Shown here one piece after another: positions 6,704 to 32,790 of a DNA stretch of 45,776 bases. Source of the stretch: Bacteroidota bacterium. GTDB taxonomy: Bacteria; Bacteroidota; Bacteroidia; Bacteroidales; B39-G9. The stretch lies in NCBI GenBank assembly GCA_030592465.1, contig JAUVJB010000001.1:1-45776 (forward strand), read 5' to 3'. The stretch's first letter is position 1, and each line of letters begins with the position of its first letter. The translations under genes and the position numbers were made by a program. Under the pieces are notes generated by a model. The model made no database searches. It saw only the letters and a program-made list of their open reading frames with translations, and was not told the DNA's origin.

Positions 6704-8467
6704 TTGAAGTACAAAGTTTACATAATTTTTTTAATACTATTTTTATGTATTAATATTTTGAAGTCACAAGATACTCTGTATCACCTTAATATCATTCAAG
6801 TAGATACTTGTAATACTTCTTTTTTAAAAAAATTAAACTATAAAACAAAATTCAACGATACAATTTCAACAAATAAAGAATTGAATAAAATTCTACAATA
6901 CTCATTTACAAAAGGGTTTTTATCATCAACTTTCGACAGTATTTCAAAAAACAATAATAATATTACTGCATATTTATATCTTGGCAGACAATATCTTTGG
7001 AATAGCTTATTGTTTAATAATATTGATAATACAGCCTTAAAAAAAACAGGTTTGAAAAAATCAAACTACTACAATAAACCTATTAACTACAATAAATTAA
7101 CACAGATTAAAAACAACTTAATTCAATATTACGAAAACATTGGTTATCCTTTTGTTTCAGTTCAACTTAAAAATATATCAATAAATAATAACTTAATAAA
7201 AGCAGATTTACAATTGACTAAAAATAATTTATTCACTATTGATAGTATTTACATAAAAGGTAATGCAAAAATATCTCCAAATTATATTTATAAATATATT
7301 GATATAAAACATAATGATTTATATAACGAAAAAAAAATTAAAGAAATAAACTCCCGCCTTAACGAGCTTAAATTTATTCAAATATCAAAACCTTACGAAG
7401 TTACTTTCACAAAAGACAAATCAGATATTTATTTATATCTTGATAAAAAAAATGCTAATCAATTTAACGGCATCATAGGATTTATGCCGAAAAATGAAAA
7501 AAATAACAATAAATTATCTTTAACAGGACAGGTGAAATTGCTGCTACTCAATTCATTAGGAAAAGGCGAAACATTTTTTATTCATTGGAATAAATTAGAA
7601 AAAACGTCACAAGAACTAACAACAAATATTATTTATCCTTATATTTTTTCATCACCAGTAGGAATTGATTTTAATTTTAATTTGTTTAAACAAGATACTT
7701 CATACCTTACAATTAACACAAATTTTGGTTTGCAATTTTTATTAAAACGAAACAATTACATAAAAACTTACTTTGAAACAAAAAACTCAAAACTACTTTC
7801 AATAACAAATATTATAAATGACAACATACTTAAAAATGCAGATTTTAATACAACAATCTATGGTTTATCATATAAATTCGGAAATTTAAACTATCAATTA
7901 AATCCTCGCACCGGTTTCGATATTTTAATAAATTTTGGGATAGGCGAGAAAAAAATTAAGAAAAATGCAAAATTACCCGAAAGTATTTACGATAATTATG
8001 ACTTAAAAACATCTCAAACTAAAGCATATTCCGATATATCATACTATTTCCCTGTTTATAAAAATATGATTATTAAAATTCAAAACCAATCGGGGATTAT
8101 TAGTAATATAAGCAATACAAACAAACAGCTGCTTAACAACGAACTTTTTAAAATCGGTGGTCTTAACACAATTCGTGGTTTTGATGAAAAATCAATTTTA
8201 GCCTCATCATACTCAATCATAAAGCTTGAATATCGATACTTGTTTGAACAAAATTCAAATTTTGTTTTATTTTTTGATGGAGCTTATTATGAAAAACAAA
8301 ATGAAACAAAACTAATATCTGATATCCCGTTTGATTTCGGATTTGGTATTAATTTTCAAACAAAAGCAGGTATATTTACTGCAAGCTATGCACTTGGCAA
8401 ACAATTTAACCAACCCATAAAAATAAATAACGCAAAAATAAATTTTGGTTATATTAACAAATTTTAA
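6704..8467 (+). CDS. Omp85-superfamily outer-membrane protein, TpsB/ShlB-FhaC-like (POTRA + beta-barrel); TTG start
   Basis: Signal peptide (M)KYKVYIIFLILFLCINILKSQ. POTRA-like segment FTIDSIYIKGNAKISPNYIYKYIDIKHNDLYNEKKIKEINSRL. Loop-6-type motif FKIGGLNTIRGFDE. C-terminal aromatic residue (F). At 587 aa it matches TpsB rather than BamA size. An in-frame TGA at 6689 leaves TTG 6704 as the only start before the signal peptide. Confidence 0.75.
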   Translation: MKYKVYIIFLILFLCINILKSQDTLYHLNIIQVDTCNTSFLKKLNYKTKFNDTISTNKELNKILQYSFTKGFLSSTFDSISKNNNNITAYLYLGRQYLWNSLLFNNIDNTALKKTGLKKSNYYNKPINYNKLTQIKNNLIQYYENIGYPFVSVQLKNISINNNLIKADLQLTKNNLFTIDSIYIKGNAKISPNYIYKYIDIKHNDLYNEKKIKEINSRLNELKFIQISKPYEVTFTKDKSDIYLYLDKKNANQFNGIIGFMPKNEKNNNKLSLTGQVKLLLLNSLGKGETFFIHWNKLEKTSQELTTNIIYPYIFSSPVGIDFNFNLFKQDTSYLTINTNFGLQFLLKRNNYIKTYFETKNSKLLSITNIINDNILKNADFNTTIYGLSYKFGNLNYQLNPRTGFDILINFGIGEKKIKKNAKLPESIYDNYDLKTSQTKAYSDISYYFPVYKNMIIKIQNQSGIISNISNTNKQLLNNELFKIGGLNTIRGFDEKSILASSYSIIKLEYRYLFEQNSNFVLFFDGAYYEKQNETKLISDIPFDFGFGINFQTKAGIFTASYALGKQFNQPIKINNAKINFGYINKF

Positions 8468-8558
8468 AGTCTATACTTGTAATTTAAAATCATTTGTTTT
8501 ACTTTTATAAAAATTTATTTAACTTTAACCATATTTTTTAACCAAAAAATATAAAAAA

Positions 8559-9065
8559 ATGAAAAAAATATCACTACTAATCACATTATTTATATCAATA
8601 AGCATTTGCAGTAATGCACAAGTTCCAAAGCTACAATCAATATTTATTTATAACTTTACTAAATATATTGAATGGCCTGCATCATATACTTCAGGTAATT
8701 TTATTATTGGCGTTATAGGGCAATCACCATTAATAAATGAATTAAACAACTTATCAAAATCAAAAAAAGTCGGGAACCAACCAATTGTTATTACTAAATT
8801 TAACAGCGTTTCTGAAATAAGCAAATGCAACATTTTATTTGTGCCAAAAAATAAAAGTTCTGAATTAAATGATGTAATAAATAAACTTAAGAGTACAAGC
8901 ACACTCATTATTACCGAAAAAGAAGGATTGGCAAAACAAGGAGCAGGTATTAACTTTGTTATTGTAGATAATAAACAAAAATTTGAATTAAATAAAACTA
9001 ATATTTCAAAATATAATTTAAAAGTTAGCACCAGCTTAACAAATTTAGCTATATTGGTTCATTAA
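8559..9065 (+). CDS. YfiR-family (DUF4154) periplasmic protein, paralogue 1
   Basis: Signal peptide MKKISLLITLFISISICSNAQ. The pattern IFIYNFTKYIEWP...FIIGVIG...CNILFV...TLIITEKEGLAKQGAGINFV...KFELNK...LKVS is recognised as DUF4154/YfiR. Confidence 0.7.
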   Translation: MKKISLLITLFISISICSNAQVPKLQSIFIYNFTKYIEWPASYTSGNFIIGVIGQSPLINELNNLSKSKKVGNQPIVITKFNSVSEISKCNILFVPKNKSSELNDVINKLKSTSTLIITEKEGLAKQGAGINFVIVDNKQKFELNKTNISKYNLKVSTSLTNLAILVH

Positions 9066-9112
9066 TTTGTTATAAAATAAAATATTTTTTTATTAAAATT
9101 ACACGAAAAAGA

Positions 9113-9547
9113 ATGAAAATAATTTTTATCATTTCTATATTATTATTAGCACCTTTTCTAATTTTTGCACAAAATGACGATACTCTTTCATACGAGTTTT
9201 CTATTGCCGATTTGCAACAAATAAATTTAATAACTGATACGTCTCAATTTTCATTTGAACCTACATATGATATTCCTATTGAAGATTTAATGAAGCTTAA
9301 TATTATTAAAGAACTAAAAATTGACACAACGTTTTCTTTTACAGACAATATGCCGTTAGACGATTTAGTAAAAATGAAAATTAAAATACACCAAAATAAA
9401 ACAACTGTTTCTCCCAATTATGACATGTCTTTAAAAGGAATTTTAGAAGTTACTGCTAACGAAGAATATGAAATTAAAACAAAAATAAAACTTTCTTATG
9501 ATTTATCATTAAATGGAATTATGAATATTGCTATTATTAAAAATTAA
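9113..9547 (+). CDS. Secreted protein built from five copies of a short [S/T/N][Y/F][D/E]..L.DL.... motif
   Basis: Signal peptide MKIIFIISILLLAPFLIFAQ. Five repeats, listed under the finding for this ORF. Same strand and tightly spaced with both YfiR genes. Confidence 0.6.
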   Translation: MKIIFIISILLLAPFLIFAQNDDTLSYEFSIADLQQINLITDTSQFSFEPTYDIPIEDLMKLNIIKELKIDTTFSFTDNMPLDDLVKMKIKIHQNKTTVSPNYDMSLKGILEVTANEEYEIKTKIKLSYDLSLNGIMNIAIIKN

Positions 9548-9560
9548 TAAAAAGAACACT

Positions 9561-10082
9561 ATGAAAAAACATAAACTTATTATTTTTTTATTATTTTTCT
9601 TGTCATTAACATCAATAAAATTGTACTCACAGGAAATTAAATTCAAAGCTATTTTTATATACAATTTTACCAAACATTTTGAATGGCCTCCTAATGCAAG
9701 GTCTGGTGATTTTGTCATTGGGGTAGTCGGTAAAGCACAATTATATGATAAATTAGTTCAAATGACAGCCTCAAAAAAAACAGGTAGTCAGTCAATTGTT
9801 GTGAAAAAATTTCGTTCCACAAAAGATATTACACAATGTCATATTCTATTTATTTCAGAATTTAACAGCGGTACAAACAGCATGAATACTGCAATTTCTA
9901 AAATTGGTAAATTTCAAACATTAATAGTTACAGAAAAAGAAGGAATGGCTTTAAAAAAAGCATCAATCAATTTTATTATCAAAGATCAAAAAATGCAATT
10001 TGAAATGAATAAAGTTAATATATCAAAATGCGGATTAAAAGTTAGTAAATATTTAGAAAATTTGGCTATTATTGTAAAATAA
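9561..10082 (+). CDS. YfiR-family (DUF4154) periplasmic protein, paralogue 2
   Basis: ORF 9528-10082 trimmed to the ATG at 9561 (MKKHKLIIFLLFFLSLTSIKLYSQ signal peptide). IFIYNFTKHFEWP...FVIGVVG...CHILFI...TLIVTEKEGMALKKASINFI...QFEMNK...LKVS is colinear with paralogue 1, with roughly half the positions identical by eye. Confidence 0.7.
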   Translation: MKKHKLIIFLLFFLSLTSIKLYSQEIKFKAIFIYNFTKHFEWPPNARSGDFVIGVVGKAQLYDKLVQMTASKKTGSQSIVVKKFRSTKDITQCHILFISEFNSGTNSMNTAISKIGKFQTLIVTEKEGMALKKASINFIIKDQKMQFEMNKVNISKCGLKVSKYLENLAIIVK

Positions 10083-10199
10083 ATTTTTTTAAAAAATATA
10101 TCAATGAAACCCACATGTTTTATAAACACAAACAAAAATAAATATAAATTCATCTATATGTGGATTCCATCAGACCCTAAAAATTAAAATTACATACTG

Positions 10200-12176
10200 A
10201 TGAAGATTAGATTTACAATCGTAAAAAAACTAACTGTAGGTTTTGGAATCTTAACTTTTGCTGTTTTATTAAATAGCCTGCTAATATATTCAACATTAAA
10301 TAATAGTAAAAAACTTAATGAGGAGATTATTAATATATACACTCCTTCGGTTTCATATTTAAACGATCTTTCTTTTTTAATTAATAACTCAAAAATGTTA
10401 ATTAAAAACTGGGTTTTTGTTGAAAGAAAAAGTGACACTCCCGACAAACTTAATCTAATTGAGATACATGAAGAAAAATTTCCCGAAATGATTAAAAAAT
10501 TATCAAAAATTAGTGAAAAATGGACAAAAAAGGAACAGGCAACTTTTCAAAACTTATCTGTCACTATTAAGGATACTTTATTTGTCAAACATAAAGAGAT
10601 AATGCAAAGTCTTAATTCTTTTGACAGCTACGACGATCCAATGGTTATTTTTGAAATAAATCCAATGGTTGAAGAAGGTGGTGAAGTCATTATTCTTTCC
10701 GACAATATTTTAAAAGAGCTCAATGCTTTATCTGAAAAATTAAATAAAAAAGCAAGTAACCGTAATGTTGAAATGATAAAATCTTTTGTTGGATTTCAAC
10801 GTTTCATCATTTTTTCATCTATATTCCTAATCTTAGCAGCTTTAATAATCGCTTATTTTACTACAACAAGCATAACACAGCCGATAAATTATTTAAAAAA
10901 ATTCCTGCTCACTATGACTAAAGGCATATTGCCAAAAGAAAAACTCAAAGCTAAAAACGATGAAATAGGAGATATGTCATCAGCTTTAAATACTTTTGTA
11001 AGTACATTAATTGAGACTTCGGAATTTGCTCTCGAAATTGGTAAAGGCAACTACAAAACTAACTACAAACCTATTAGCGAACAAGATATTCTTGGTAACT
11101 CATTAATTAACATGAGAAATAATCTTGAAAAGGCTGATGAAGAAGAAAATAAACGCAAACAAGAGGATGAACTAAGGAATTGGGATGCACAAGGAATAGC
11201 TAAATTAGGTGATATTTTACGCCAAAATAATGATAATATAAATAAATTATCATCTAATATAATGAGTTTTATTATTGATTATCTTAATGCTAATCAAGGA
11301 GCATTATTTATTCTCAGCGATAATCAAGAAGAAAATGAAAAATATTTTGAACTAAAATCTGCAATTGCTTATGGCAGGAGTAAATTAATGCACAAAAATG
11401 TCCCTTATAATGAAGGTTTAATTGGAAGATGTGCTTATGAAAAATTACCTATTTACTTAAAAGAAATACCGGAAAATTATTTACATATTACTTCCGGCTT
11501 AGGAACGTCTAACCCCAAAATTTTACTTATTGTTCCTTTAAAACTTAATGAAGATATTTTCGGCATCATAGAAATTGCCTCATTTAATGAAATTAAACAA
11601 TATCAAATTGACTTTCTTGAAAAAGCCGGAGAAAATATCGCTTCAACGATTTCAAGTGTTAAAGTTAATGAACAAACAGCACAACTACTTTCCGAATCAC
11701 AACAAAAAGGTGAAGAATTAGCAGCTCAAGAGGAAGAAATGCGACAAAATATGGAAGAATTACAAGCTACTCAAGAGGAATCCTCCCGACGTGAAGTAGA
11801 AATGAGGGATGTTATTGAAGCTATTAACAATACGGTTGGTAACATTGATTTTGATATGAACGGTTCTGTTATTAACGTTAACGATCGTTACTCTAAAATG
11901 ATTAGTGTTGCACCTGAAAATATTGTTGATAATAAACATATTGACCTTATCTCATCAGACTACAACGAAGAAGATGAAGATTATCAATCTCTTTGGATTA
12001 ACTTACGAAAAGGAATCCCTTGCGAAAAAAAATTCAAATACAATACTCCAAATGGAGATGTTTGGCTACATGAGACATTTACTCCTTTTAAAAATGCCGA
12101 TGGAGACTTCAATAAAGTTGTTGATTTAGTTATTGATATTACCGAAAATAAATTACTCGAAGATAAATTAAAATAG
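10200..12176 (+). CDS. Membrane sensor: 2 TM + extracytoplasmic helical domain + HAMP + GAF + coiled coil + one PAS; no catalytic or output domain
   Basis: TM1 ~aa 12-32, TM2 ~aa 199-221, HAMP ~222-275 (ITQPINYL...DEIGDMSSALNTF). GAF ~345-500 (ANQGALFIL...GLIGRCAYEK...LIVPLKLNEDIFGIIEIASF). Coiled coil ELAAQEEEMRQNMEELQATQEE. PAS ~545-655, ending DLVIDITENKLLEDKLK*. Confidence 0.8.
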   Translation: MKIRFTIVKKLTVGFGILTFAVLLNSLLIYSTLNNSKKLNEEIINIYTPSVSYLNDLSFLINNSKMLIKNWVFVERKSDTPDKLNLIEIHEEKFPEMIKKLSKISEKWTKKEQATFQNLSVTIKDTLFVKHKEIMQSLNSFDSYDDPMVIFEINPMVEEGGEVIILSDNILKELNALSEKLNKKASNRNVEMIKSFVGFQRFIIFSSIFLILAALIIAYFTTTSITQPINYLKKFLLTMTKGILPKEKLKAKNDEIGDMSSALNTFVSTLIETSEFALEIGKGNYKTNYKPISEQDILGNSLINMRNNLEKADEEENKRKQEDELRNWDAQGIAKLGDILRQNNDNINKLSSNIMSFIIDYLNANQGALFILSDNQEENEKYFELKSAIAYGRSKLMHKNVPYNEGLIGRCAYEKLPIYLKEIPENYLHITSGLGTSNPKILLIVPLKLNEDIFGIIEIASFNEIKQYQIDFLEKAGENIASTISSVKVNEQTAQLLSESQQKGEELAAQEEEMRQNMEELQATQEESSRREVEMRDVIEAINNTVGNIDFDMNGSVINVNDRYSKMISVAPENIVDNKHIDLISSDYNEEDEDYQSLWINLRKGIPCEKKFKYNTPNGDVWLHETFTPFKNADGDFNKVVDLVIDITENKLLEDKLK

Positions 12177-12500
12177 ACAAAAATTGTTAAATGGCTAAAT
12201 TGTTAAAACTTGTCAGGCTTTTGACTGATTGTTATAATAATTGTTCTTATATCTTAATAATAACTAACTGGTTTAAGTTTGTAACTTAAACCAAAGTTGA
12301 AAATTACTCGTGATAAGTAACTAAATATAAATAAATTACAAAATCCAACCGAATTTGGCTGTAATACCTTTTAATCTATTAATCTTTAAATCTTGTTTAT
12401 ATTTTTATGCATGATTTTTATACTTGACATGTTTGTCCCCAACTTTTGAACTTGACCCCAGAAAACAATATAACAATTTAACAATTTAGCAATATACAAA

Positions 12501-13568
12501 ATGAATATTAAACAGAGAATTGAAGCTTTTGCAAAACTTGGTAATTTTTTAGCTCAATTTGAAAATAATTCAACAAAAAAAAACAATTCACCTCTTAATA
12601 ATAAATTTTATGACGATTTTAATAAACTTATATCAATAATTGAAATCAAAAATCAATGGTTTACCATAAAACACGTAAGATATTCAATATCAGCAATTGC
12701 GAACTTACTAACTGAAAAGAATCTTTCAAAATGGATTAATAATTACCCGAATATTAATAACAACAACACAAAAAAAACAATAGGTGTTATTATGGCCGGC
12801 AACATTCCTCTTGTTGGATTTCACGACTTGCTTTGTGTTCTAATTTCAGGACATAAGTTTTTGGGTAAAATGTCATCAAAAGATAATCAATTGATAAAAA
12901 AAATTACTGAAATATTAATTTCAATTAATCCTGAATTTAAAGAACTAATTTCATTTACTGAACAAAATTTATCAAATTTTGATGCCATTATTGCAACAGG
13001 GAGTAACAATACATCACGATATTTTGAATTCTACTTTAAAAATTATCCACACATTATTAGAAAAAACAGAAATTCCATTGCAATACTCAATGGAAACGAA
13101 ACTATAAATGAGTTACATAATTTAGCAGACGATATTTTTCTCTATTTTGGTTTAGGATGCAGAAATATTTCAAAACTTTACGTACCCAACGACTATAATT
13201 TCGACATTTTTTTTAAGGCAATTAATCATTATAGAAACATCATAAATCATAAAAAATATGCTAATAACTACAAATATTATAAATCAATATTATTAATAAA
13301 CAAAACACCTCATCTCGACAACGGTTTTTTATTACTAAAAGAAGATTTTTCAATATCATCACCTATATCAACAATTTATTACGAAAAATATCACAACATC
13401 AATGATTTAACCAAAGCCATAAATCAAAACTTAGAAAATATTCAATGTATTGTAACAAACTGCAACGAATTTAAAAATAAAATAGAATTTGGACAAGCTC
13501 AAAAACCAGAGTTATGGGATTATGCCGACAATGTTGATACATTAAAATTTTTAATGCAGATTAATTAG
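12501..13568 (+). CDS. Acyl-CoA reductase, LuxC family
   Basis: The GVIMAGNIPLVGFHDLLCVLISGHK segment and ~355-aa length match the Bacteroidota LuxC-like acyl-CoA reductase family, as I recall it. Confidence 0.7.
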   Translation: MNIKQRIEAFAKLGNFLAQFENNSTKKNNSPLNNKFYDDFNKLISIIEIKNQWFTIKHVRYSISAIANLLTEKNLSKWINNYPNINNNNTKKTIGVIMAGNIPLVGFHDLLCVLISGHKFLGKMSSKDNQLIKKITEILISINPEFKELISFTEQNLSNFDAIIATGSNNTSRYFEFYFKNYPHIIRKNRNSIAILNGNETINELHNLADDIFLYFGLGCRNISKLYVPNDYNFDIFFKAINHYRNIINHKKYANNYKYYKSILLINKTPHLDNGFLLLKEDFSISSPISTIYYEKYHNINDLTKAINQNLENIQCIVTNCNEFKNKIEFGQAQKPELWDYADNVDTLKFLMQIN

Positions 13569-14105: not shown

Positions 14106-17057
14106 ATGAGAAACAAATACTTATTAATAACACTTGCAGTTGTAACAACAGTTGTTTTATTATCATTTTCCCCTTTTAAAGGAGATGTTACAAAAAATTA
14201 CACTCCTCGTAATACCATCCAACAACAAAAAAGAGGGATAAAAGGCGCAATTGAATGGGTAAGTAGAAGAAGAAATAATCAAATTACTCATACAGTTGAC
14301 CCTAAAGATATTATCAAAGCTCAAAAAAAAATATCAGCTCTAAGAATGCAAAAAAATAAATCATCATTAGGTTTAGAATGGACAGAACTTGGACCCGATA
14401 ATATTGGTGGCAGAACACGTGCAATTTTAATTGATAAAGATAATCCTAATCTTATGTTTGCAGGCGGTGTTGCCGGTGGTTTGTGGAAATCAACAACTGC
14501 AGGTCAAGCATGGTCACAAGTAACAGATGTAAATTTTATTAATCTCGCAGTTGTTTCAATTTGTCAAGCTGCAAACGGTGATATTTATTTTGGCACAGGA
14601 GAAGGTATGGCTCATAACTTAGGTGACGGTACAAGTGGTTTTGAAGGTGCAGGTATTTGGAAATCAACCAACCATGGTGAAACTTTCACTAAACTAACAT
14701 CTACTTGGGACACTCCGGAAGCACAAAGTATTTTTGTTAATGTTAATAAATTAGCAGCCGACCCTGATGATGCCAACTTAATTTATGCTGCTACTAAAAG
14801 AGGCTTGCGGTACACTAACGATGGTGGTACAAATTGGAACAGCGCATTAAGTGTTGCAGAGTATGACACATTAGTTGCTTCTGATGTAAAAATTGCAAGT
14901 GATGGCTCTATTATTGCATCTATCGGGAATATTGCTTTTATCAAACGTAAAGGTACTGATAATGCTTTTCAAAAACGTTCCGGAGACGATGAAGATGAAG
15001 ACGGAACCCAAATCTCAGACTCATTAATAAGTCGTCTTGAATTTGCTTTTTCTCCATCCGACCCTAATTATGTCTATTGTGCTGCAGCAAAAACTGATGG
15101 AACATTAAGAAATATTTATCAATCAAAAGATAAGGGTGATACTTGGAAAATTATTGGTAACGGAGGTGCTGAACAATTCCAACCATTTGGTACACAAGGT
15201 AGTTATAACAATGTTATTGCTGTTTATCCCGATAATCCTGAGAAAATTCTTGTTGGAGGTCTTGATATTTGGAGAGGTACTTCTGTTGCAGGTTCTGTTA
15301 CTTTTGAATGGGAACAAATTACACTATGGGGTTTATTTTCTATACATCCATTATACGTACATGCCGACCAACATGTAATTATTTTCAATCCTCTAAATCC
15401 TTCAATAATATTTATTGGAAGTGATGGCGGTATTACACGTGCTATTGATGATGGAAAAAGCTTTACTTGTCAAACTATGAACACTAATTATAATGTTACT
15501 CAATTTTATTCTGTTGCTTACTCAGGCACCGGAGAACTATTAGGCGGCACACAAGATAATGGTACATTATATTTTAACTTTATGGGAAACACTCCGAAAA
15601 ATGCTTTTGAAATTTTGGACGGAGACGGAGGCTATTGCGAATTTTCTAAATTAAATCCAAATATCTACTTTGCTACAATGTATTATGGAGGACTCGTACG
15701 AACCAGTGATTTAGAAAAATTTGGGCAAGAATTTTATTCCGAGAAATTAATAACTGCTTTAACGAATTATGGTGCAGCATTTGTTACTCCTGTTGCATTG
15801 TGGGAAACAAAAAACGACCCATTAAGCAGAGATACTATTTATTTTGTTGCAAAACGTGATTACTATGAAGGTGAACAAATAACTTTTAAAAGTCATAATG
15901 CTTATGAACAGCCTATTCCATTTACAATTTCTGCAAATGATGCTCATCCTGATTCTTTATCTTACGTTAAAGATGACACAATAAAAATTCACGACCCTTA
16001 TCAATCATTATTTGCTTTAGGACTAACTAAATCTGTTTGGATAACCCGAATGGCTACCAATTTCAACACTACTGTTGGTGATAACGATTGGTGGTCAATT
16101 GTAAAACCAACTGTACTTTCATACGATGAAACTGTTGAATACTTAGCGTTCTCAAACGATGGAAATCATTTATTCTTCTCAACAAACAAAAATAAACTCT
16201 ATCGTTCATCAAACCTTAAAAATGCCCGCAGCTATCTTAACGCTGATGCGGTCTCTGCTGGAGATGCATTAGTTGTTAATACTCAACTCATTGCCGATTT
16301 TAATGATAGAGCTATTACAAGTATCACTACTGACCCTCAAAATGTTGAAAATCTTGTAGTAACACTCGGTAACTATGGTAATGATAATTATGTTTATTTT
16401 TCAACAAATGCAGCAACTACCACAAGTGAAGATGTAAATGTGAATTTTGCCTCACGTCAAGGCGATTTACCTCAAGCACCTGTTTATTCAGCAACTTTCC
16501 ACTACGAAGGCTCTGAAAAAGTTATTCTTGGTACTGAATATGGTGTTTTTGCAACAGATATAATTTCAGGAGGTCATGGACAAGTATCAGAAACTTGTGT
16601 TTGGACAGAAGAAAATACCGGTTTAGACATTGTTCCTGTTTTTATGGTTCGTGAACAAGCTTGGGCAAACTCTTGGCAACCACACATTACTAATCATGGA
16701 TATTTATATGTGGCTACTCACGGCAGAGGCTTATTTTATAGCAAAACACTAAAAGGTCCTGTTTCTATTGATGAAAACCCTATTGCTTTAAATTCATCTA
16801 ATAAGATTAATATTGATGTTTATCCTAACCCGATTGTTGATGTTGCAAATATTTCTTATGACATTACTGATAACTCAGATGTTCAAATTAATCTTTATAA
16901 CATTCAAGGTAAATTAGTTAAAAAAGTTAATTTGTCTGCTCAAACAATTGGTAAACACAACTATCAATTTAACATTAAAGGTATAACCCAAGGTACATAT
17001 ATTTTAAATATTGTAGCGGGTAATAAATCAAACTCAAAAAGAGTTATTATTTACTAA
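14106..17057 (+). CDS. T9SS cargo: BNR/sortilin(VPS10)-like beta-propeller protein with type-A C-terminal sorting domain
   Basis: N-terminal signal anchor. GGRTRAILIDKDNPNLMFAGGVAGGLWKSTTAGQAWSQV plus repeated S-x-D-x-G-x-T/W-type blades (KSTNHGETF, TNDGGTNW, SKDKGDTW, DDGKSF). C-terminus VYPNPIVDVANISYDI...LYNIQGKLV...GTYILNIV is a T9SS CTD. Confidence 0.85.
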   Translation: MRNKYLLITLAVVTTVVLLSFSPFKGDVTKNYTPRNTIQQQKRGIKGAIEWVSRRRNNQITHTVDPKDIIKAQKKISALRMQKNKSSLGLEWTELGPDNIGGRTRAILIDKDNPNLMFAGGVAGGLWKSTTAGQAWSQVTDVNFINLAVVSICQAANGDIYFGTGEGMAHNLGDGTSGFEGAGIWKSTNHGETFTKLTSTWDTPEAQSIFVNVNKLAADPDDANLIYAATKRGLRYTNDGGTNWNSALSVAEYDTLVASDVKIASDGSIIASIGNIAFIKRKGTDNAFQKRSGDDEDEDGTQISDSLISRLEFAFSPSDPNYVYCAAAKTDGTLRNIYQSKDKGDTWKIIGNGGAEQFQPFGTQGSYNNVIAVYPDNPEKILVGGLDIWRGTSVAGSVTFEWEQITLWGLFSIHPLYVHADQHVIIFNPLNPSIIFIGSDGGITRAIDDGKSFTCQTMNTNYNVTQFYSVAYSGTGELLGGTQDNGTLYFNFMGNTPKNAFEILDGDGGYCEFSKLNPNIYFATMYYGGLVRTSDLEKFGQEFYSEKLITALTNYGAAFVTPVALWETKNDPLSRDTIYFVAKRDYYEGEQITFKSHNAYEQPIPFTISANDAHPDSLSYVKDDTIKIHDPYQSLFALGLTKSVWITRMATNFNTTVGDNDWWSIVKPTVLSYDETVEYLAFSNDGNHLFFSTNKNKLYRSSNLKNARSYLNADAVSAGDALVVNTQLIADFNDRAITSITTDPQNVENLVVTLGNYGNDNYVYFSTNAATTTSEDVNVNFASRQGDLPQAPVYSATFHYEGSEKVILGTEYGVFATDIISGGHGQVSETCVWTEENTGLDIVPVFMVREQAWANSWQPHITNHGYLYVATHGRGLFYSKTLKGPVSIDENPIALNSSNKINIDVYPNPIVDVANISYDITDNSDVQINLYNIQGKLVKKVNLSAQTIGKHNYQFNIKGITQGTYILNIVAGNKSNSKRVIIY

Positions 17058-17989: not shown

Positions 17990-20905
17990 TTATTGTATTA
18001 ATATTTTTGTTTTAATCAGCTCTTTATCAGTATGTAAACTAATAAGAAATATTCCTTTTCCAAATTTTGATAAATCAATATTCTCTTTTGATTTCATGTC
18101 TTTTTTACAAAAAACAGTTTTCCCTATCATATTTGTTATTTTCAATTCCTTTATCTTTATTGGGTTTTCAACAATAATATTGATTATCCCTGTCGAAGGA
18201 TTCGGAAAAATTTTTATACTTTCATTTGCTAAATTTTTAATGCTTGAAATAACTGATAATGTGGCTATGTTACTTGTAATGTTTCCACAGGCATCTGTCC
18301 CTGTTATTTCGCAGGTATAATCCCCTGCATCATCATTTGTGATTTTATTTATTGTAAGTTGATGTGTTATTGCACCATTAATGTGTGTATTGTTGTTTAA
18401 TACACTATCATCTTTATACCATTGGTAATTAATAATATCTCCTTCGGCTATAACTGTAAATACAGCATCTTCATTTATATTTAACGATTGTGAAATAGGT
18501 TGTGTTGTAATTAAAACTGATTGATCAACAAATAAAGTTGCAGTATCGCTAATAATGCTATCAGTTACACTACTTACTATACATTGATATTGGTATCCAT
18601 CAATGTCTGCCGTTGCATTGGTAATAGTTAGTGTGTCTGTTGTTGCTCCGCTATAAACACTTCCGTTTGTAATATTTATAAAGCCACTGCTTTCATTAAC
18701 TTGCCATTGATAACTTTCTACTCCTGTTACTGTAATACTAAAATTTGTGCTATTGCCTTCGCAAATTGTTTGATTTTCCGGTTGAGATGTAATTATTGGA
18801 AGCGAACCCAGATAATTATCTAATTTTGAAATAAACACATCGTCATCTCCGGCATAAGAATCATCATAAGCCCCTGATGATACCGGATAATTGCTTGATG
18901 TTGTATAACCTGTTACAAATACATTACCTGAAACATCAACAACTATTTCAGTACCGACATCTTCTCCTGCCCCTCCGAGAAAAGTAGAAGCGAATAAAGA
19001 GCTTAAATCAGAATTAAATTTAGAAATAAAGATATCACTTATATCGCCGTTATGCGAATTATCGTAAGCTGTTGTTGAAGTAGGAAAATCAGTTGACCCT
19101 GTATATCCTGTAATAAACACATTACCTGAAGTATCTAAATCAATTGAATAACATTCTTCATAACCTGAACCTCCTATAAAAGTAGATGCAGATAAAGTAC
19201 TCAAATCTGAATTAAATTTTGAAACAAACACATCACGACTTCCATTATGTATATTATCGTAAGCAGATGCAGATGTGGGAAAGTCGTCCGATTTAGTATG
19301 CCCTGTAACATATACATTATTAAAATCGTCAAGTTTGATCGAATAACCATAATCGGTATCGGTTCCTCCAATAAAAGTAGATGCTGATAAAGTACTTAAA
19401 TCTGATGTAAATTTTGAAACAAAGGCATCATAAGAACCATTGTGTGAAGGGTCATAAGCTCCTGCTGTTGAGGGATAATACGATGAGTATGTTTCTCCTG
19501 TAATATATACATTACCGGAACTGTCAAGCCTCAATGAATAACTAATATCACTTTCACTTCCTCCGATTAAAGTAGATGCAGAAAGTATGCTTAAATCAGA
19601 ATTTAGTTTTGATACAAAAACATCAATATTTCCGTTAAACGTTTCATTATAAGCCCCTGATGTTGTTGGATAACCTATGCCATATACAAATCCGGTAATA
19701 AAAATACTATCTGTGCCATCAATCGCAATTGAATAAGCTTTTTCAACATTAGTTCCTCCTATATAAGTTGATGCAAGCAAAGAGCTTAAATCAGAATTGA
19801 ATTTTGCAACAAATACATCATAATTACCGCTAAGTGAATTATCATAAGGTGTTCCGGCCATAGGGAAATCATTTGACCAAGTATTTCCAGTGATATAAAT
19901 ATTACTATTGCTGTCAAAAGCAAGATACCTGCTGTAGTCTGAATTACTGCCACCCACAAAAGTTGATATCAATAAGGTTTGTAAATCAGGACTGAATTTT
20001 GAAATAAAGACATCATAAGCTCCATTAACAGAAGTATTATATGCCCCTGCCGTTGTAGGGTAAAATGTTGAATGTGTTTCACCGGTAACAAAAATATTTC
20101 CCGAATCATCTAAAACCACACACCAACTGTCATCTCTTCCTGTTCCTCCCACAAAAGTAGAAGCAATAAGAGGATCAATTACAAGCTCATAATCAGGATT
20201 GTAATTACCAACTTCAAAACCATAAGTTTTATTGTTTTTTGTGTAAGCAACTTCTACATAATGCTTTTTGTTTTCGATAATCTGATATGCAACAGGAGTA
20301 GTAAATTTAATATTTCCTTGTGTAGTTTTAATAATAAGCTCACCGTTTTTAGCAATCTTTATTTTTTTTGCACCTTTAAGTTTTAGTTGTATTTTTTCAG
20401 GGGAAATGCCAGGACCTACATAAAAAAGTTTTTCTATATTATTGCCATAAGCATTAAGTTTAACTTTTATGCCTTCCCAAATTTGACCAAGATTTACAGT
20501 TTGATATGTTGTGATATTATTTTGCCATTTATTAGGATCATCGCCAATAAATGAGTTTACAATTGTTTGTGACGGCAATTCTGCAGAAACCTGTAATGTT
20601 TTTTTGTTTGTTTCAAAAGTTTCGCGAAAAACATATGAACTCAAACTGTCAACAGACATGTTATAAACTATTTCGCCTTTATGTGTCAGGAAAACCGTTC
20701 CTCCAAATGTTTTGGCATAAAAAGCCACGTCAGAGTGCTTCTGTCCTTTATTTTTTATCCAAGGAATTTTTGTTTTGTCAATTTCTTTTGATATTGCTGC
20801 TTTTTCAATATCAGATAAACTGTTTTGTTGAAAATTGATTTGAGCATTTGTGTTAATATAAATAAAATATAAACATGCTAGTAACAGTAATAATTTTGAT
20901 TTCAT
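17990..20905 (-). CDS. T9SS cargo: seven SBBP beta-propeller repeats + two Ig (I-set-like) domains + C-terminal sorting domain
   Basis: Seven ~63-aa repeats of STF(I/V)GG..D....I.(L)D..GN(V/I)(F/Y)(I/V)TG.T.S..FP(T)...AYD....G..D(V)F(V/I)SKFNSDLS(T)L. Two segments have the YQWQ/YQWYKDD...DAGDYTC Ig pattern. C-terminus IKIFPNPSTGIINIIVE...GIFLISL. Confidence 0.85.
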   Translation of the reverse strand: MKSKLLLLLACLYFIYINTNAQINFQQNSLSDIEKAAISKEIDKTKIPWIKNKGQKHSDVAFYAKTFGGTVFLTHKGEIVYNMSVDSLSSYVFRETFETNKKTLQVSAELPSQTIVNSFIGDDPNKWQNNITTYQTVNLGQIWEGIKVKLNAYGNNIEKLFYVGPGISPEKIQLKLKGAKKIKIAKNGELIIKTTQGNIKFTTPVAYQIIENKKHYVEVAYTKNNKTYGFEVGNYNPDYELVIDPLIASTFVGGTGRDDSWCVVLDDSGNIFVTGETHSTFYPTTAGAYNTSVNGAYDVFISKFSPDLQTLLISTFVGGSNSDYSRYLAFDSNSNIYITGNTWSNDFPMAGTPYDNSLSGNYDVFVAKFNSDLSSLLASTYIGGTNVEKAYSIAIDGTDSIFITGFVYGIGYPTTSGAYNETFNGNIDVFVSKLNSDLSILSASTLIGGSESDISYSLRLDSSGNVYITGETYSSYYPSTAGAYDPSHNGSYDAFVSKFTSDLSTLSASTFIGGTDTDYGYSIKLDDFNNVYVTGHTKSDDFPTSASAYDNIHNGSRDVFVSKFNSDLSTLSASTFIGGSGYEECYSIDLDTSGNVFITGYTGSTDFPTSTTAYDNSHNGDISDIFISKFNSDLSSLFASTFLGGAGEDVGTEIVVDVSGNVFVTGYTTSSNYPVSSGAYDDSYAGDDDVFISKLDNYLGSLPIITSQPENQTICEGNSTNFSITVTGVESYQWQVNESSGFINITNGSVYSGATTDTLTITNATADIDGYQYQCIVSSVTDSIISDTATLFVDQSVLITTQPISQSLNINEDAVFTVIAEGDIINYQWYKDDSVLNNNTHINGAITHQLTINKITNDDAGDYTCEITGTDACGNITSNIATLSVISSIKNLANESIKIFPNPSTGIINIIVENPIKIKELKITNMIGKTVFCKKDMKSKENIDLSKFGKGIFLISLHTDKELIKTKILIQ

Positions 20906-26386: not shown

Positions 26387-27409
26387 ATGGGATTATTTTC
26401 ATTTTTAACACAAGAAATTGCAATTGATTTAGGTACTGCTAATACAATTATTATCCATAATGATAAAATTGTGGTTGATGAGCCTTCAATTGTTGCAATA
26501 GACCAAAATACAAAAAAAGTAATTGCAATAGGTACGCAAGCCCGACAGATGCAGGGAAAAACACCTGACTATATAAAAACAATACGACCTTTACGTGATG
26601 GTGTAATTGCAGATTTTAACGCAGCCGAGCAAATGATTCGCGGCATGATTAAAATGATTGATAATAAACCGAGATTATTCTCTCCTGCACTTAAAATTGT
26701 TGTATGTATTCCATCAGGCAGTACCGAAGTAGAATTACGAGCTGTAAGAGATTCTTCAGAGCATGCCGGAGGTAGAGAGGTTTATCTTATTTACGAACCA
26801 ATGGCAGCAGCATTAGGATTAGGTATTGATGTTGAAGCTCCTGAAGGAAACATGGTTGTTGATATTGGTGGTGGCACAACTGAAATTGCAGTAATCTCAT
26901 TAGGCGGTATTGTCAGTAATAAATCAATTCGTATTGCAGGTGATGATTTAACTGCTGATATTAAAGAATATATGAGGCATCAACATAATATTAAAATCGG
27001 CGAACGAACAGCCGAAGACATTAAAATTAATGTTGGTTCATCGCTAACTGATATTGAGGATGCTCCACCTGATTATATTGTTAGAGGCCCTCATCAAATG
27101 ACTGCTCTTCCAATTGAAATTCCTGTTTCATATCAAGAAATTGCACACTGTTTAGATAGATCACTTAACAAAGTTGAAGCCGCCATTTTATCAACTTTAG
27201 AACAAACACCTCCTGAATTATATGCTGATGTATTAAAAAACGGGGTATTTCTTACCGGTGGTGGAGCTTTACTTAGAGGATTAGATAAAAGATTGAGCGA
27301 AAAAACTAAAATAAAATTTCATATAGCAGAAGATCCTCTTCATGCAGTTGCAAGAGGTGCGGGTATTGCTCTTAAAAATGTTGATAAATTTCCTTTTTTA
27401 ATGAGATAG
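26387..27409 (+). CDS. mreB: Rod shape-determining actin homologue MreB
   Basis: IAIDLGTANT, DIGGGTTEIAVISLGG and GGGALLRGLD motifs. Confidence 0.97.
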   Translation: MGLFSFLTQEIAIDLGTANTIIIHNDKIVVDEPSIVAIDQNTKKVIAIGTQARQMQGKTPDYIKTIRPLRDGVIADFNAAEQMIRGMIKMIDNKPRLFSPALKIVVCIPSGSTEVELRAVRDSSEHAGGREVYLIYEPMAAALGLGIDVEAPEGNMVVDIGGGTTEIAVISLGGIVSNKSIRIAGDDLTADIKEYMRHQHNIKIGERTAEDIKINVGSSLTDIEDAPPDYIVRGPHQMTALPIEIPVSYQEIAHCLDRSLNKVEAAILSTLEQTPPELYADVLKNGVFLTGGGALLRGLDKRLSEKTKIKFHIAEDPLHAVARGAGIALKNVDKFPFLMR

Positions 27410-27573
27410 AATAAAGTAAAAAGACTAAAATAAAAAATATTTCAAAATTATTTTTTTCTATATATTTTTTTTACTTTATACTTTGAATTTTTTAGCCCCT
27501 GTTAAATAATTGCTTTGCATTTCACAGGGTAAACTTTAGCCTTTAATTTGAATATTCTTTTTACTTGTTATAG

Positions 27574-28404
27574 ATGAGGACATTAGTTAAATTTTTCTTA
27601 AGATATTATTACTTTTTACTATTTCTTACGTTTGAAATTTTTTCAATATTCCTTGTTATAGAAAATAATAATTATCAAAAAACCTTATTTCTGAATTCTG
27701 CAAACTTCTTTTCAGGGAATATCTACAAAGGCATCGCTAATTTAACTTCGTATATTAATCTAAAACAAACAAACGAAGAATTATCAGCCGAAAATACACG
27801 TTTAAACAACATTCTAAAAAATTCATATAAAACTAATGAAATCTCATTGCTTGAAATTTATGATTCTACTTATTTTCAACAATACACAACAACAGCAGCT
27901 CAAGTTATTAATAACTCTGTAAATCGACAAAATAATTATTTAACAATAGACAAAGGTGAAAAACAAGGTATTTCTCCTGAAATGGCTGTAATATCGCCCA
28001 AGGGCATTGTCGGAATAGTAACAAATGTTTCAAATAACTTTGCTTCAGTAATATCTATCTTAAATACAAACATGCGTATAAGTGCAATGATTAAAAAAAA
28101 CGGGTGTTTTGGTTCTCTCGTTTGGGATGGAAAAAATTACAGAGAAACTATTTTAAAAGATATTCCTAATCATGTTAAAATAAATATAGGCGATACAATA
28201 ATAACAAGCGGATATTCCTCAATATTTCCAAAAGGGAAATTAATTGGGGTTATATCTGATTTTAAACAAAAAAAAGGTGGTAACTTTTATTTAATTACGG
28301 TTAAATTATCAACAAATTTTAAAAAACTTTCTTATGTTTATGTTATTGGTAATTTCCTAAAACAAGAACAAAAAGATTTAGAAAAAATATCAGAGAATGA
28401 TTAA
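27574..28404 (+). CDS. mreC: Rod shape-determining protein MreC
   Basis: N-terminal TM, coiled coil (LKQTNEELSAENTRLNN), then beta-barrel domains (GIVGIVTNVSNNFASV, GDTIITSG). Position between mreB and mreD. Confidence 0.9.
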   Translation: MRTLVKFFLRYYYFLLFLTFEIFSIFLVIENNNYQKTLFLNSANFFSGNIYKGIANLTSYINLKQTNEELSAENTRLNNILKNSYKTNEISLLEIYDSTYFQQYTTTAAQVINNSVNRQNNYLTIDKGEKQGISPEMAVISPKGIVGIVTNVSNNFASVISILNTNMRISAMIKKNGCFGSLVWDGKNYRETILKDIPNHVKINIGDTIITSGYSSIFPKGKLIGVISDFKQKKGGNFYLITVKLSTNFKKLSYVYVIGNFLKQEQKDLEKISEND

Positions 28405-28903
28405 ATTTATATTAAGAAATATATGGCGATTTGTAATTTTAGTAATTCTGCAAATAGTAATATTTAATAATATTCAATTTAGCGGTTACATCAATCCTTA
28501 TATCTATGTATTATTCATTTTATTACTTCCTTTTGAAACACCAAAGTGGCTTTTAATATTATCATCATTTTTATTAGGCTTGTCAATTGATATTTTCTCA
28601 AACACTTTAGGCATGCATGCAGCTGCCTGTGTATTTATGGCTTTTATGCGACCCCATGTTTTGCAATATATCTCACCTCGTGAAGGATATGAAGCAAGTT
28701 CATTACCTCGTATCTCTTATTACGGGTTTAATTGGTTCATTAAATATTCTATAACATTAATTTTAGCACATCATATTTTTTTATTTTATATTGAAGTTTT
28801 TACTTTTTCAGGGTACTTTTTTACATTATCAAGAGCTTTATTAAGTTCTTTATTTTCAATTATTCTTATTGTCTTTAGTCAGTATGTTATTTATAGAAAA
28901 TAG
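28397..28903 (+). CDS. mreD: Rod shape-determining protein MreD
   Basis: Polytopic 168-aa membrane protein. It overlaps the mreC stop by 8 nt and sits at the canonical operon position. Confidence 0.85.
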   Translation: MIKFILRNIWRFVILVILQIVIFNNIQFSGYINPYIYVLFILLLPFETPKWLLILSSFLLGLSIDIFSNTLGMHAAACVFMAFMRPHVLQYISPREGYEASSLPRISYYGFNWFIKYSITLILAHHIFLFYIEVFTFSGYFFTLSRALLSSLFSIILIVFSQYVIYRK

Positions 28904-28977
28904 TTGTGAGATTGTGAAGTTGTGAAGTTGTGAAATCTTAAATCATAAATCTAAATTCTAAATTGTTCAATTGCTAA

Positions 28978-32354: not shown

Positions 32355-32390
32355 AACTATAAAATTAGTTGTATAACTAAATTTATAGTT
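32355..32390. promoter_or_regulatory. 36-bp near-perfect palindrome, candidate BlaI-family operator upstream of blaI-blaR1
   Basis: aactataaaattagttgtataactaaatttatagtt matches its own reverse complement at 32/36 positions (hand check). It is centred on TTGTATAA with TACA/TGTA-type half sites and ends 13 nt before the ATG at 32404. Confidence 0.5.
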
Positions 32391-32403
32391 GTATATTTGT
32401 TGC

Positions 32404-32790
32404 ATGAAAGAATTAACTAAAGCAGAAGAACAAATAATACAAATTCTATGGAAAATAGAAAAAGGATTTGTGAAAAATATTATTGAATACCTGCCGGAAC
32501 CGAGACCTGCATATAATACAGTCTCAACAATAATCCGTATTTTAGAGAAAAAAAGGTTTGTATCTCACAAGGCTTACGGCAAAACTTATGAATATTATCC
32601 TTTAATTAACAAAAAGGAATATACAAAAGTGTATTTTAAAAATTTTATTCACAATTATTTCAGTAATTCATTTCAACAAATGGTTTCTTTCTTTGCAAAA
32701 GAAGAAGATCTATCTCTAACAGAAATGGAAGAAATGAAAAAAATTATTGAACAAGAAATAAAGAAACAAAAAACTGACAAACATGAATAA
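32404..32790 (+). CDS. BlaI/MecI/CopY family transcriptional repressor
   Basis: MKELTKAEEQIIQILW...YNTVSTIIRILEKKRFVSHK winged-helix pattern. The 8-nt overlap with the downstream BlaR1-like gene is typical. Confidence 0.9.
   Translation: MKELTKAEEQIIQILWKIEKGFVKNIIEYLPEPRPAYNTVSTIIRILEKKRFVSHKAYGKTYEYYPLINKKEYTKVYFKNFIHNYFSNSFQQMVSFFAKEEDLSLTEMEEMKKIIEQEIKKQKTDKHE

Follow-up and report, generated by a model that had tools for sequence, protein, structure and literature searches.

Gene content of the locus

The window, a 45,776-nt stretch covering only 45.8 kb of the genome, contains a block of five open reading frames (ORFs) on the + strand, separated by gaps of 91, 47, 13 and 117 nt. A first-pass annotation had described this block with the same coordinates and spacing and had reported no convincing internal terminator; in agreement with this, a scan for terminator-like sites was empty for the + strand inside the block. 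The features are as follows.

6704..8467, + strand: Omp85-superfamily outer-membrane barrel with POTRA and loop-6 RGF motif (Pfam, NCBIfam)
8559..9065, + strand: YfiR-like periplasmic protein A, the typical copy (DUF4154, E 8e-36)
9113..9547, + strand: secreted 144-aa protein with five ~25-residue repeats (homologue alignment)
9561..10082, + strand: YfiR-like periplasmic protein B, a divergent paralogue (DUF4154, E 9e-29)
10200..12176, + strand: two-TM receptor without enzymatic output (Pfam, AF2)
12268..12294, no strand assigned: perfect 12-bp inverted repeat with a 3-nt loop (terminator-like scan and sequence)

A sigma-70 promoter scan gave 44 sites where 47 were expected and is thus uninformative. 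The gap between the barrel and YfiR-like A contains a near-consensus Bacteroidota -7 box (TATACTTG), which is compatible with, but no proof of, a separate promoter. The inverted repeat, which the terminator-like scan lists on the - strand, begins 92 nt past the sensor stop codon and is a possible end point of the transcription unit.

YfiR-like proteins and the receptor

YfiR-like A and B are paralogues, as first proposed, and are 48.8% identical. Both match DUF4154 (Pfam PF13689), and the family profile matches Pseudomonas aeruginosa YfiR structures in the PDB (4yn7 and others, E 1.5e-5), so that the window proteins share the periplasmic DUF4154/YfiR fold of the YfiBNR system. The best NCBIfam match of both is NF053591 (TOL_0243 YfiR-like), at 113.6 bits for A and 96.9 bits for B; these scores fall below the 125-bit cut-off, and proteobacterial members score 140-160. 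The YfiR equivalog NF053586 (cut-off 85 bits) scores only 31.9 and 23.2 bits. YfiR-like A is mostly 41-61% identical (full range 31-73%) to sensor-adjacent YfiR-like proteins elsewhere. YfiR-like B is found only in the window clade and in locus L084, and a single YfiR-like gene is present in L085, L172-L174 and L116-L133.

The receptor is composed of a periplasmic four-helix bundle (residues ~32-198), HAMP (~222-281), a helical linker, GAF (347-485), a coiled coil of ~60 residues bearing the motif QEEEMRQNMEELQATQEE, and PAS (547-657). Pfam matches GAF_2 and PAS and, weakly, 4HB_MCP_1 and HAMP; the PAS domain also matches MmoS, LOV and Aer PAS structures, and the periplasmic part is all-alpha in the AF2 model (pLDDT 80.6). 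There is no CHASE8 match in the receptor, and HisKA plus HATPase, GGDEF and MCP signalling domains are absent from the window receptor and 20 family members, which bears out its initial description as an output-less HAMP-GAF-PAS sensor. The best 120 of more than 2000 relatives are all 649-733 aa long with only GAF, PAS and HAMP domains, a full-length family that argues against truncation of the window protein. Other variants gain only PAS or hemerythrin domains.

In its order of four-helix bundle, TM2, HAMP, helical linker and GAF-type domain, the receptor resembles NarX/NarQ- and MCP-type receptors; in NarX the four-helix bundle and HAMP are likewise followed by a GAF-like domain. The sensor module is interchangeable in both cases, being replaced by dCache in paralogues of the window receptor. 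Unlike these types, the window receptor lacks a DHp/CA kinase core or MCP signalling domain and ends in a coiled coil and PAS.

Linkage of YfiR-like and receptor genes

Among 23 PAS-type loci with enough upstream sequence, 16 have a YfiR-like gene within 400 nt upstream of the receptor, at receptor identities down to 35%, and the gap is 24-36 nt in most loci. Distant pairs are flanked by opposite-strand genes, so that YfiR and receptor form a self-contained two-gene unit. No YfiR was found in the fetched flank of 5 of the 23 PAS-type and 17 of 26 short-type receptors, nor within 10 kb of the Salinivirga orthologue.

An HMM built from residues 32-198, the periplasmic part alone, matches the corresponding region of HAMP-SpoIIE proteins, which have a PP2C phosphatase output (E 1e-34 to 1e-39), and the genes for these proteins also come after a YfiR-like gene. 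Paralogues that combine a dCache sensor with the HAMP-GAF-PAS cytoplasmic part of the window receptor are without YfiR. YfiR therefore co-varies with the periplasmic domain of the receptor and not with the output. The conserved core is a YfiR-like gene directly upstream of a four-helix bundle-HAMP-GAF-coiled coil-PAS receptor.

The five-repeat protein and TonB-dependent receptors

The product of 9113-9547 was originally read as five copies of one motif. These units (residues 25-41, 50-66, 76-92, 101-117 and 127-143) have the consensus P-[ST]-Y-[DE]-[ILM]-[SP]-[LI]-[ED]-[DGE]-L-[ML]-x-[LI]-x-[ILV] and are conserved in an alignment of 25 homologues. The protein has no match in Pfam or NCBIfam and no matching fold in the PDB. 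Its family has 29 representatives in 1.84 billion proteins, all of 138-189 aa save three (two fragments and one of 396 aa), and, as read off the alignment, the signal peptide is followed by a lipobox-like Cys in ~9 of 25 members. The gene lies between a YfiR-like gene and the sensor in L082-L084 and L172-L174, and this position is kept in the last three loci at identities down to 25%. In the AF2 model (pLDDT 76, pTM 0.44) each unit is a short helix with a strand ending. The model packs the units into a sheet, so that the motifs may be structural rather than free ligands, although the pTM is only 0.44.

The repeat unit, as S-[LI]-E-D-L-M-x-L-x-[IV], matches an N-terminal motif of those TonB-dependent receptors (TBDRs) whose genes adjoin YfiR-like genes in Bacteroidota and Proteobacteria. 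It directly follows the signal peptide in all eight TBDRs adjoining YfiR-like genes (three Bacteroidota lineages, Indioceanicola, Sphingobium and two Ralstonia species). In 1.19 million ORF residues the strict pattern matched solely the repeat proteins and these TBDRs, and an HMM of the unit run over 1895 proteins placed five of the eight within the top six. The TBDR motif directly precedes a V-[TS]-S-x-S-K segment at the TonB-box position; for this reason the motif might bind TonB instead of YfiR. In L173 the YfiR-like gene, repeat protein, receptor and TBDR are encoded together in one + strand block.

A triad of TBDR, YfiR-like protein and sensor is already modelled in NCBIfam as NF053590 (TOL_0244 TBDR), NF053591 and NF053592 (HK near YfiR-like), and is present in Indioceanicola, Sphingobium indicum pSRL1 and Ralstonia megaplasmids; we found no published study of it. 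The first-pass annotation overlooked both the shared motif and these models. The window resembles the triad in that its YfiR-like proteins match NF053591 best and its repeat unit is the TBDR N-terminal motif. It differs in its YfiR scores below 125 and in lacking a TBDR, none of the window ORFs scanned being of the TOL_0244 type, and an NF053592 N-terminal domain, the window sensor having no match to this model at NCBIfam E <= 0.1. The outputs also differ, GAF-PAS in the window receptor as against a kinase or GGDEF-EAL in the triad; a Ralstonia GGDEF-EAL protein matches NF053592 with E 3.5e-27.

The Omp85 barrel

The barrel has the POTRA (Pfam E 6e-7), C-terminal barrel and loop-6 [VI]RG[FY] motif of the Omp85 superfamily, the last as GGLNTIRGFD, conserved throughout the family; the POTRA-like segment and loop-6-type motif had been noticed at the outset. 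The accompanying TpsB label is weak. The match to ShlB (E 2.7e-6, 27.5 bits, cut-off 22.7) is partial, covering profile positions 110-265 of 311, POTRA_2 scores 13.7 bits against a cut-off of 24, the top NCBIfam alignment is BamA (residues 36-570), and homologues mostly have the Omp85 domain PF01103. No large exoprotein gene (TpsA) adjoins the barrel in the window, as already remarked, and homologues have no recurrent large neighbour across 80 loci. A TTG start at 6704 restores the signal peptide missing from the 569-aa database version.

GTDB species genomes contain at least 469 relatives of the barrel. At 80 other loci, encoding homologues 35-45% identical to it, no DUF4154 ORF was found nearby; the neighbours vary and include housekeeping genes, and in 37 of these loci a uracil-DNA glycosylase-like gene precedes the barrel homologue. 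L084 keeps the order YfiR, repeat, YfiR, receptor with no barrel match nearby, and the modules in L172 and L173 are also without a barrel (the sequence of L174 is too short to tell). By these comparisons the barrel is a widespread stand-alone Bacteroidota Omp85 gene and very probably a housekeeping bystander outside the signalling module. Family N-termini have signal-peptidase-I signals without a lipobox; the family is therefore not TamL. In general features it can be likened to the stand-alone TamA-like Bacteroidota Omp85 proteins (Fjoh_0402 class; PMC12045153): like them it is ~580 aa long, combines POTRA domains with a barrel, has a signal-peptidase-I signal peptide and lacks a tamB neighbour.

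Proposed mechanism and alternatives

The first-pass proposal of a five-gene envelope-signalling module thus holds for four genes and fails for the barrel. The gene order is conserved elsewhere for 8559-12176, which on comparative grounds appears to be a conserved Bacteroidota envelope-sensing unit. From the domain identities, the conserved gene linkage, the motif in common with TBDRs and the way in which YfiR follows the periplasmic domain, we infer a periplasmic sensing module with YfiR-like gating and titration by the repeat protein, the barrel being an unrelated neighbour; this is the reading towards which we lean. The YfiR-like proteins would bind the periplasmic four-helix bundle and set the signalling state through HAMP, in parallel to the action of YfiR on YfiN. 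The repeat protein would offer five copies of a short helix-plus-strand motif. Given the same motif at the N-terminus of YfiR-linked TBDRs, its most likely role is to bind and titrate the YfiR-like proteins, which would release or engage the receptor. In function it could correspond to YfiB sequestration or to the exposed N-terminal extension of the TBDR. In P. aeruginosa, YfiR-YfiB binding occurs by beta-strand augmentation (PMC4655355), which is compatible with a helix-plus-strand peptide ligand. As the receptor has no catalytic domain, the conserved GAF/coiled-coil/PAS portion may itself be the output, probably by contacting an effector protein whose gene lies elsewhere. A search for a conserved cytoplasmic partner gene gave none, which makes this output conjectural.

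If the barrel belonged to the module, it might export or anchor the small periplasmic proteins, as initially suggested. Its shared strand and 91-nt gap fit such a role, and a barrel followed by YfiR and/or receptor is kept in L082, L083, L085 and L089 (48-85% receptor identity). However, DUF4154 is missing from the 80 barrel-homologue loci, the barrel from L084, L172, L173 and the distant YfiR-receptor pairs, and the outer-membrane partner linked to YfiR-like genes, where present, is a TBDR. The exporter model is largely refuted by these comparative data, and we regard it as very unlikely. Least credible of all is a decayed two-component or GGDEF locus with a truncated kinase or cyclase as sensor. 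Some databases name relatives "histidine kinase", but none of the best 120 has a kinase or GGDEF domain, further variants add no such domain, and no ORF continues past 12176. Truncation is refuted by the full-length output-less relatives.

The repeat units could instead be TonB-box mimics, the protein binding the TonB C-terminal domain or another strand-pairing protein and modulating TonB-dependent transport, with only an indirect link to YfiR. The placement of the TBDR motif directly before the TonB-box-like segment and the beta strand ending each AF2 unit speak for this. Yet outside the window clade the repeat gene lies between YfiR-like gene and receptor in 3/3 loci checked, tonB and exbBD never lie directly beside it there, and the TonB boxes of E. 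coli BtuB, FepA and FhuA are not known to contain the helical half of the motif (S-L-E-E-L-M); we consider the mimicry unlikely. Rather unlikely, too, is inherited synteny without functional coupling, in which the YfiR-like proteins serve an unlinked partner, for instance a TBDR or GGDEF protein, while the receptor responds to a signal of its own. In its favour, many family receptors are without a nearby YfiR, and the window covers only 45.8 kb of the genome. Against this, adjacency persists to 35% receptor identity with short gaps and changed flanks, and YfiR tracks the periplasmic domain over two outputs and is missing from the dCache paralogues.

Comparison with known systems

YfiBNR of P. 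aeruginosa has counterparts in DgcN-YfiR-YfiB of E. coli and HmsCDE of Yersinia. A DUF4154 periplasmic protein encoded beside a two-TM HAMP receptor is common to this system and the window. In the window there is no GGDEF, a four-helix bundle takes the place of CHASE8, and the YfiR gene is duplicated. No OmpA/Pal-like YfiB is present among the 18 window ORFs scanned or in the annotation of the syntenic L082. The output is not c-di-GMP synthesis, and the original idea of a YfiR-based relay with a non-c-di-GMP receptor gains support from the conserved adjacency and co-variation. An analogy, and only that, can be drawn with FecA-FecR-FecI: the proposed logic of the wider triad has a TBDR N-terminal extension addressing a periplasmic or inner-membrane regulator. 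Unlike FecA-FecR-FecI, it has no STN domain, anti-sigma or ECF sigma factor, and the mediator is a soluble DUF4154 protein. As in YfiBNR, a third secreted component of the window could titrate the YfiR-like proteins, and the repeat-protein family, with its lipobox-like Cys, appears to be lipidated in some lineages like the lipoprotein YfiB.

The locus

The window has a GC content of about 28%, and its proteins have their closest relatives in MAGs annotated as Bacteroidota or Bacteroidales. The first-pass annotation had read five plus-strand genes, separated by gaps of 91, 47, 13, and 117 nt, as a single envelope-signaling module. The ORFs are present at these positions, and HMM scans upheld the domain calls made for them (POTRA/ShlB, two DUF4154, HAMP, GAF, and PAS):

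6704–8467, plus strand, Omp85-superfamily barrel (587 aa)
8559–9065, plus strand, YfiR-A
9113–9547, plus strand, five-repeat protein (144 aa)
9561–10082, plus strand, YfiR-B
10200–12176, plus strand, receptor (658 aa)

The two YfiR-like proteins, each of about 170 aa, match the DUF4154 model with E values of 8e-36 and 9e-29. The locus is nevertheless a four-gene module rather than a five-gene one: linkage of the YfiR-like, repeat, and receptor genes recurs in relatives, whereas comparative loci exclude the barrel. The module varies the YfiR theme: the receptor domain and the output both differ, YfiB is missing, and its logical place is taken by a motif-repeat protein. A sigma-70 promoter scan gave no informative signal.

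Directly downstream of the receptor lies a gene for a LuxC-like acyl-CoA reductase (12501–13568, plus strand). It keeps this position within the clade of the window (comparison loci L082–L085 and L089), with DUF2752 and MpPF26 genes intervening in some cases. As a candidate module partner it was rejected, its synteny being confined to the clade and absent at distant loci.

The Omp85-superfamily barrel

The barrel matches POTRA (E = 6e-7) and, in part, the ShlB barrel (E = 2.7e-6), and its residues 36–570 align to the BamA model. A scan that took a single genome for each GTDB species found at least 469 relatives, and the neighborhoods of the best 80 were examined. A DUF4154 ORF occurs at none of these 80 loci, and membership of the barrel in the module was rejected on this basis; it is a bystander. 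Its commonest neighbor is an upstream uracil-DNA glycosylase-like gene (37 of 80 loci), while the downstream genes vary. The N-termini of the family carry typical signal-peptidase-I sites and no lipobox, which rules out identification as TamL. Given these signals, the variable neighbors, and the lack of DUF4154, the family resembles the stand-alone TamA-like Omp85 proteins recently noted in Bacteroidota (PMC12045153), a resemblance rather than an established orthology.

In the window lineage, the order nitroreductase, barrel, YfiR genes (where present), receptor, and LuxC-like gene is found at L082, L083, L085, and L089. At L084, where receptor identity is 62%, the YfiR/repeat/YfiR/receptor/LuxC order is kept with no barrel match, and a 596-aa gene without a Pfam match lies upstream of the module on the opposite strand. 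The database version of the window barrel is 569 aa long, starting 18 codons later and lacking a signal peptide; with the TTG at 6704 as start codon, a signal peptide is recovered, and about 55 nt before this codon there is a -7 box of the Bacteroidota type (TATCTTTG).

Receptor architecture

The receptor gave weak 4HB_MCP_1 and HAMP matches along with GAF and PAS, and nothing C-terminal to the PAS domain. Its AF2 model (pLDDT 80.6) resolves the following parts, in order:

periplasmic part, all-helical bundle
HAMP and helical linker
GAF, residues 347–485
coiled coil, about 60 residues
PAS, residues 547–657

The receptor has more than 2000 relatives, the best 120 of which are all 649–733 aa long and contain GAF, PAS, and HAMP domains only. 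Among 20 diverse family members, GAF and PAS are present in all, HAMP in 16, 4HB_MCP_1 in 7, and a kinase or cyclase domain in none. A full-length family without such domains rules out a decayed or truncated kinase or cyclase; the receptor is not a truncation. An exact-sequence look-up of the receptor found no match, and no gene family other than YfiR recurs beside receptors as a candidate output partner, the other neighbors being lineage-specific housekeeping genes. The searches also draw attention to the very large size of this family of Bacteroidota membrane receptors.

Conservation across the family is highest in the QEEEMRQNMEELQATQEE stretch of the coiled coil. That the coiled coil could serve CheR/CheB as a substrate, or pair like a zipper with CheBR-PAS kinases, is a thought for which we make no claim. 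Matches to LOV, Aer, and MmoS raised the possibility of a flavin-binding PAS domain, which was dropped because the family consensus shows no conservation over the stretch in question. Some paralogs keep the same cytoplasmic part and have a dCache sensor instead, sometimes with an extra C-terminal hemerythrin or further PAS domains. Since the sensor is swapped and the cytoplasmic part retained, the GAF/coiled-coil/PAS block behaves as a constant output onto which different inputs can be fitted, as in chemoreceptors. Tandem arrays of two to four dCache/HAMP/GAF/coiled-coil/PAS paralogs, some hemerythrin-ended, occur at five comparison loci (L128, L130, L143, L147, and L162). One of these paralogs is 1553 aa long with at least five PAS domains, and none in the arrays has a catalytic output.

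YfiR-like proteins and their link to the receptor

A PDB search with the single YfiR-A sequence found no match; the profile of the YfiR-like family reaches the Pseudomonas aeruginosa YfiR crystal structures (E = 1.5e-5). YfiR-A, the typical copy, is 48.8% identical to YfiR-B. Linkage was assessed among relatives obtained by exact look-up and by scanning metagenomes with the alignment of receptors. A DUF4154 gene lies within 400 nt upstream of the receptor at 16 of the 23 PAS-type loci whose upstream sequence was long enough, in most cases with a gap of 24–36 nt, and three further loci with shorter upstream sequence have YfiR fragments at the equivalent position. Such pairs persist down to 35% receptor identity, and because opposite-strand genes flank these distant pairs, they form a two-gene unit. 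The conserved core is the YfiR-like gene plus the receptor. The link is not universal: no YfiR was found in the flank at 5 of the 23 PAS-type receptors and at 17 of 26 shorter, PAS-less receptors, nor within 10 kb of the orthologous receptor gene of Salinivirga cyanobacteriivorans.

Outside the clade, the closest homologs of YfiR-A (51–55% identical) lie in a different setting, in which the DUF4154 gene is followed by a gene for a secreted TPR-like protein of about 300 aa and then by one for a HAMP-SpoIIE (PP2C) protein. The carriers of this set (L166–L171) are Flavobacteriales-type MAGs. An HMM of receptor residues 32–198 alone matches the periplasmic part of the HAMP-SpoIIE proteins end to end (E = 1e-34 to 1e-39), and on this match the periplasmic domain of these phosphatases is homologous to that of the receptor. 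No YfiR was found beside the dCache paralogs. What YfiR goes with is the periplasmic domain rather than the output. The bundle shared by YfiR-linked phosphatases and the dCache paralogs without YfiR are the strongest indirect evidence that a YfiR-like protein may act on the periplasmic bundle.

The five-repeat protein and a motif shared with TonB-dependent receptors

HMM scans gave no family match for the repeat protein, and among 1.84 billion representative proteins, searched exhaustively, it has only 29 relatives, of which nearly all measure 138–189 aa. Five units can be recognized in nearly all of 25 aligned sequences and follow the consensus P-[ST]-Y-[DE]-[ILM]-[SP]-[LI]-[ED]-[DGE]-L-[ML]-x-[LI]-x-[ILV]; a single-unit peptide reads PTYDIPIEDLMKLNIIK. 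A lipobox-like Cys is present in about 9 of the 25; the window copy has a plain signal peptide. In the AF2 model (pLDDT 76, pTM 0.44) each unit forms a short helix and then a strand, and a Foldseek search of the PDB with this model returned nothing at E ≤ 0.001. At the distant loci L172, L174, and L173, genes for repeat proteins 25–38% identical stand with a YfiR-like gene on one side and the receptor gene on the other. The repeat protein is a real module member, and this arrangement makes the second YfiR gene of the window a clade-specific addition.

At L173 the block runs on into a TonB-dependent receptor (TBDR) gene whose product has the mature N-terminus FNLSLEDLMNTPIVSASK, and at three other Bacteroidota loci a YfiR-like gene accompanies a TBDR bearing ELSLEELMDIQV or VSIDELLNMKTNV. 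In Proteobacteria, the TBDR gene is followed by a YfiR-family gene and then by a sensor gene, with overlapping start and stop codons. Four such triads (L175–L178), from Indioceanicola, Sphingobium indicum pSRL1, and Ralstonia megaplasmids, have CHASE8-type sensors (kinase or GGDEF-EAL).

Proteobacterial triads (organism; sensor; TBDR motif). The comparison unit from the window repeat protein is IPIEDLMKLNI.
Indioceanicola profundi; CHASE8 hybrid kinase; MSIDELVKVEITSVSR
Sphingobium indicum pSRL1; annotated "ATP-binding protein", by annotation a probable kinase; SLEELRDMPI
Ralstonia solanacearum; GGDEF-EAL; LPLEQLMQVQV
Ralstonia wenshanensis; annotated EAL domain-containing; LPIEQLMQVQV

In 1.19 million residues of ORF translations, the strict motif pattern matches repeat proteins and YfiR-linked TBDRs only, and by unit-HMM score 5 of 8 TBDRs are among the best 6 of 1895 proteins, the match always lying directly after the signal peptide. 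These results show that, in sequence terms, the motif match between repeat protein and TBDRs is specific.

The triad occurs in 36 Ralstonia plasmid records, and NCBIfam holds three consecutive models for it (NF053590, NF053591, and NF053592), so curators have recognized it. No published study of the triad was found in the literature; searches on DUF4154, TOL_0243, and YfiR with TBDR, Bacteroidota, PP2C, or kinase returned just YfiBNR papers or irrelevant ones. At L097 and L105, genes for a NikR-like regulator (RHH plus NikR_C) and an NTP-transferase-like protein lie between a short receptor and a YfiR-TBDR pair; the intervening regulator hints that the TBDR there may handle a metal such as nickel.

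Proposed mechanism

In the YfiBNR system, YfiR represses YfiN from the periplasm, and YfiB sequesters YfiR by beta-strand augmentation on its C-terminal face (PMC4655355). From this analogy and the linkage data we infer every contact of a three-step mechanism, and its output. YfiR-like proteins would bind the periplasmic bundle of the receptor; the repeat protein, or elsewhere the TBDR N-terminus, would compete for them through its helix-plus-strand units; and the receptor would signal through its GAF/coiled-coil/PAS part to an unlinked partner.

The short motif common to the repeat protein and the TBDR family is the likely handle. The main alternative is that the motif binds TonB rather than YfiR-like proteins, since in the TBDRs it stands directly before a TonB-box-like segment. 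Tentatively, and with the odds somewhat against it, we propose instead that S-[LI]-E-[ED]-L-M-x-[LIV]-x-[IV] is a docking peptide for YfiR-like proteins, such that in the triads a substrate would induce exposure of the TBDR N-terminus, which would capture the repressor and turn the sensor on. The output of the inner-membrane sensor could then be a kinase, GGDEF-EAL, a PP2C phosphatase, or GAF-PAS, and the five-repeat protein would offer the same peptide in multivalent form, either free or anchored by a lipid. If docking of this kind proved true, it would constitute a second, sigma-factor-independent form of TonB-dependent cell-surface signaling, common to Bacteroidota and Proteobacteria.

To our knowledge, the one role described for YfiR has been repression of a single cyclase, in a system investigated in connection with Pseudomonas small-colony variants. 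The present comparison shows that DUF4154 proteins serve HAMP receptors generally as periplasmic partners, across at least four kinds of output, and it turns an annotated but unstudied three-gene system, for example that of Ralstonia solanacearum megaplasmids, into a testable signaling mechanism.

Other genes in the window

Two large type IX secretion cargo proteins are encoded at 14106–17057 (plus strand) and 17990–20905 (minus strand). The latter contains DUF7948, SBBP beta-propeller repeats, Ig domains, and Por_Secre_tail; the tail of the former is presumed from the annotation of its L082 ortholog. An ordinary cell-shape cluster (26387–32218, plus strand) comprises mreB, mreC, a 168-aa ORF without a match that is probably mreD, PBP2, and rodA. 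At 32389–34081 (plus strand), a BlaR1-type M56 peptidase carries a fused TonB C-terminal domain; the 133-aa ORF that precedes and overlaps it may, at a guess, encode its repressor. A 2533-aa ORF occupies 37691–45292 on the minus strand.
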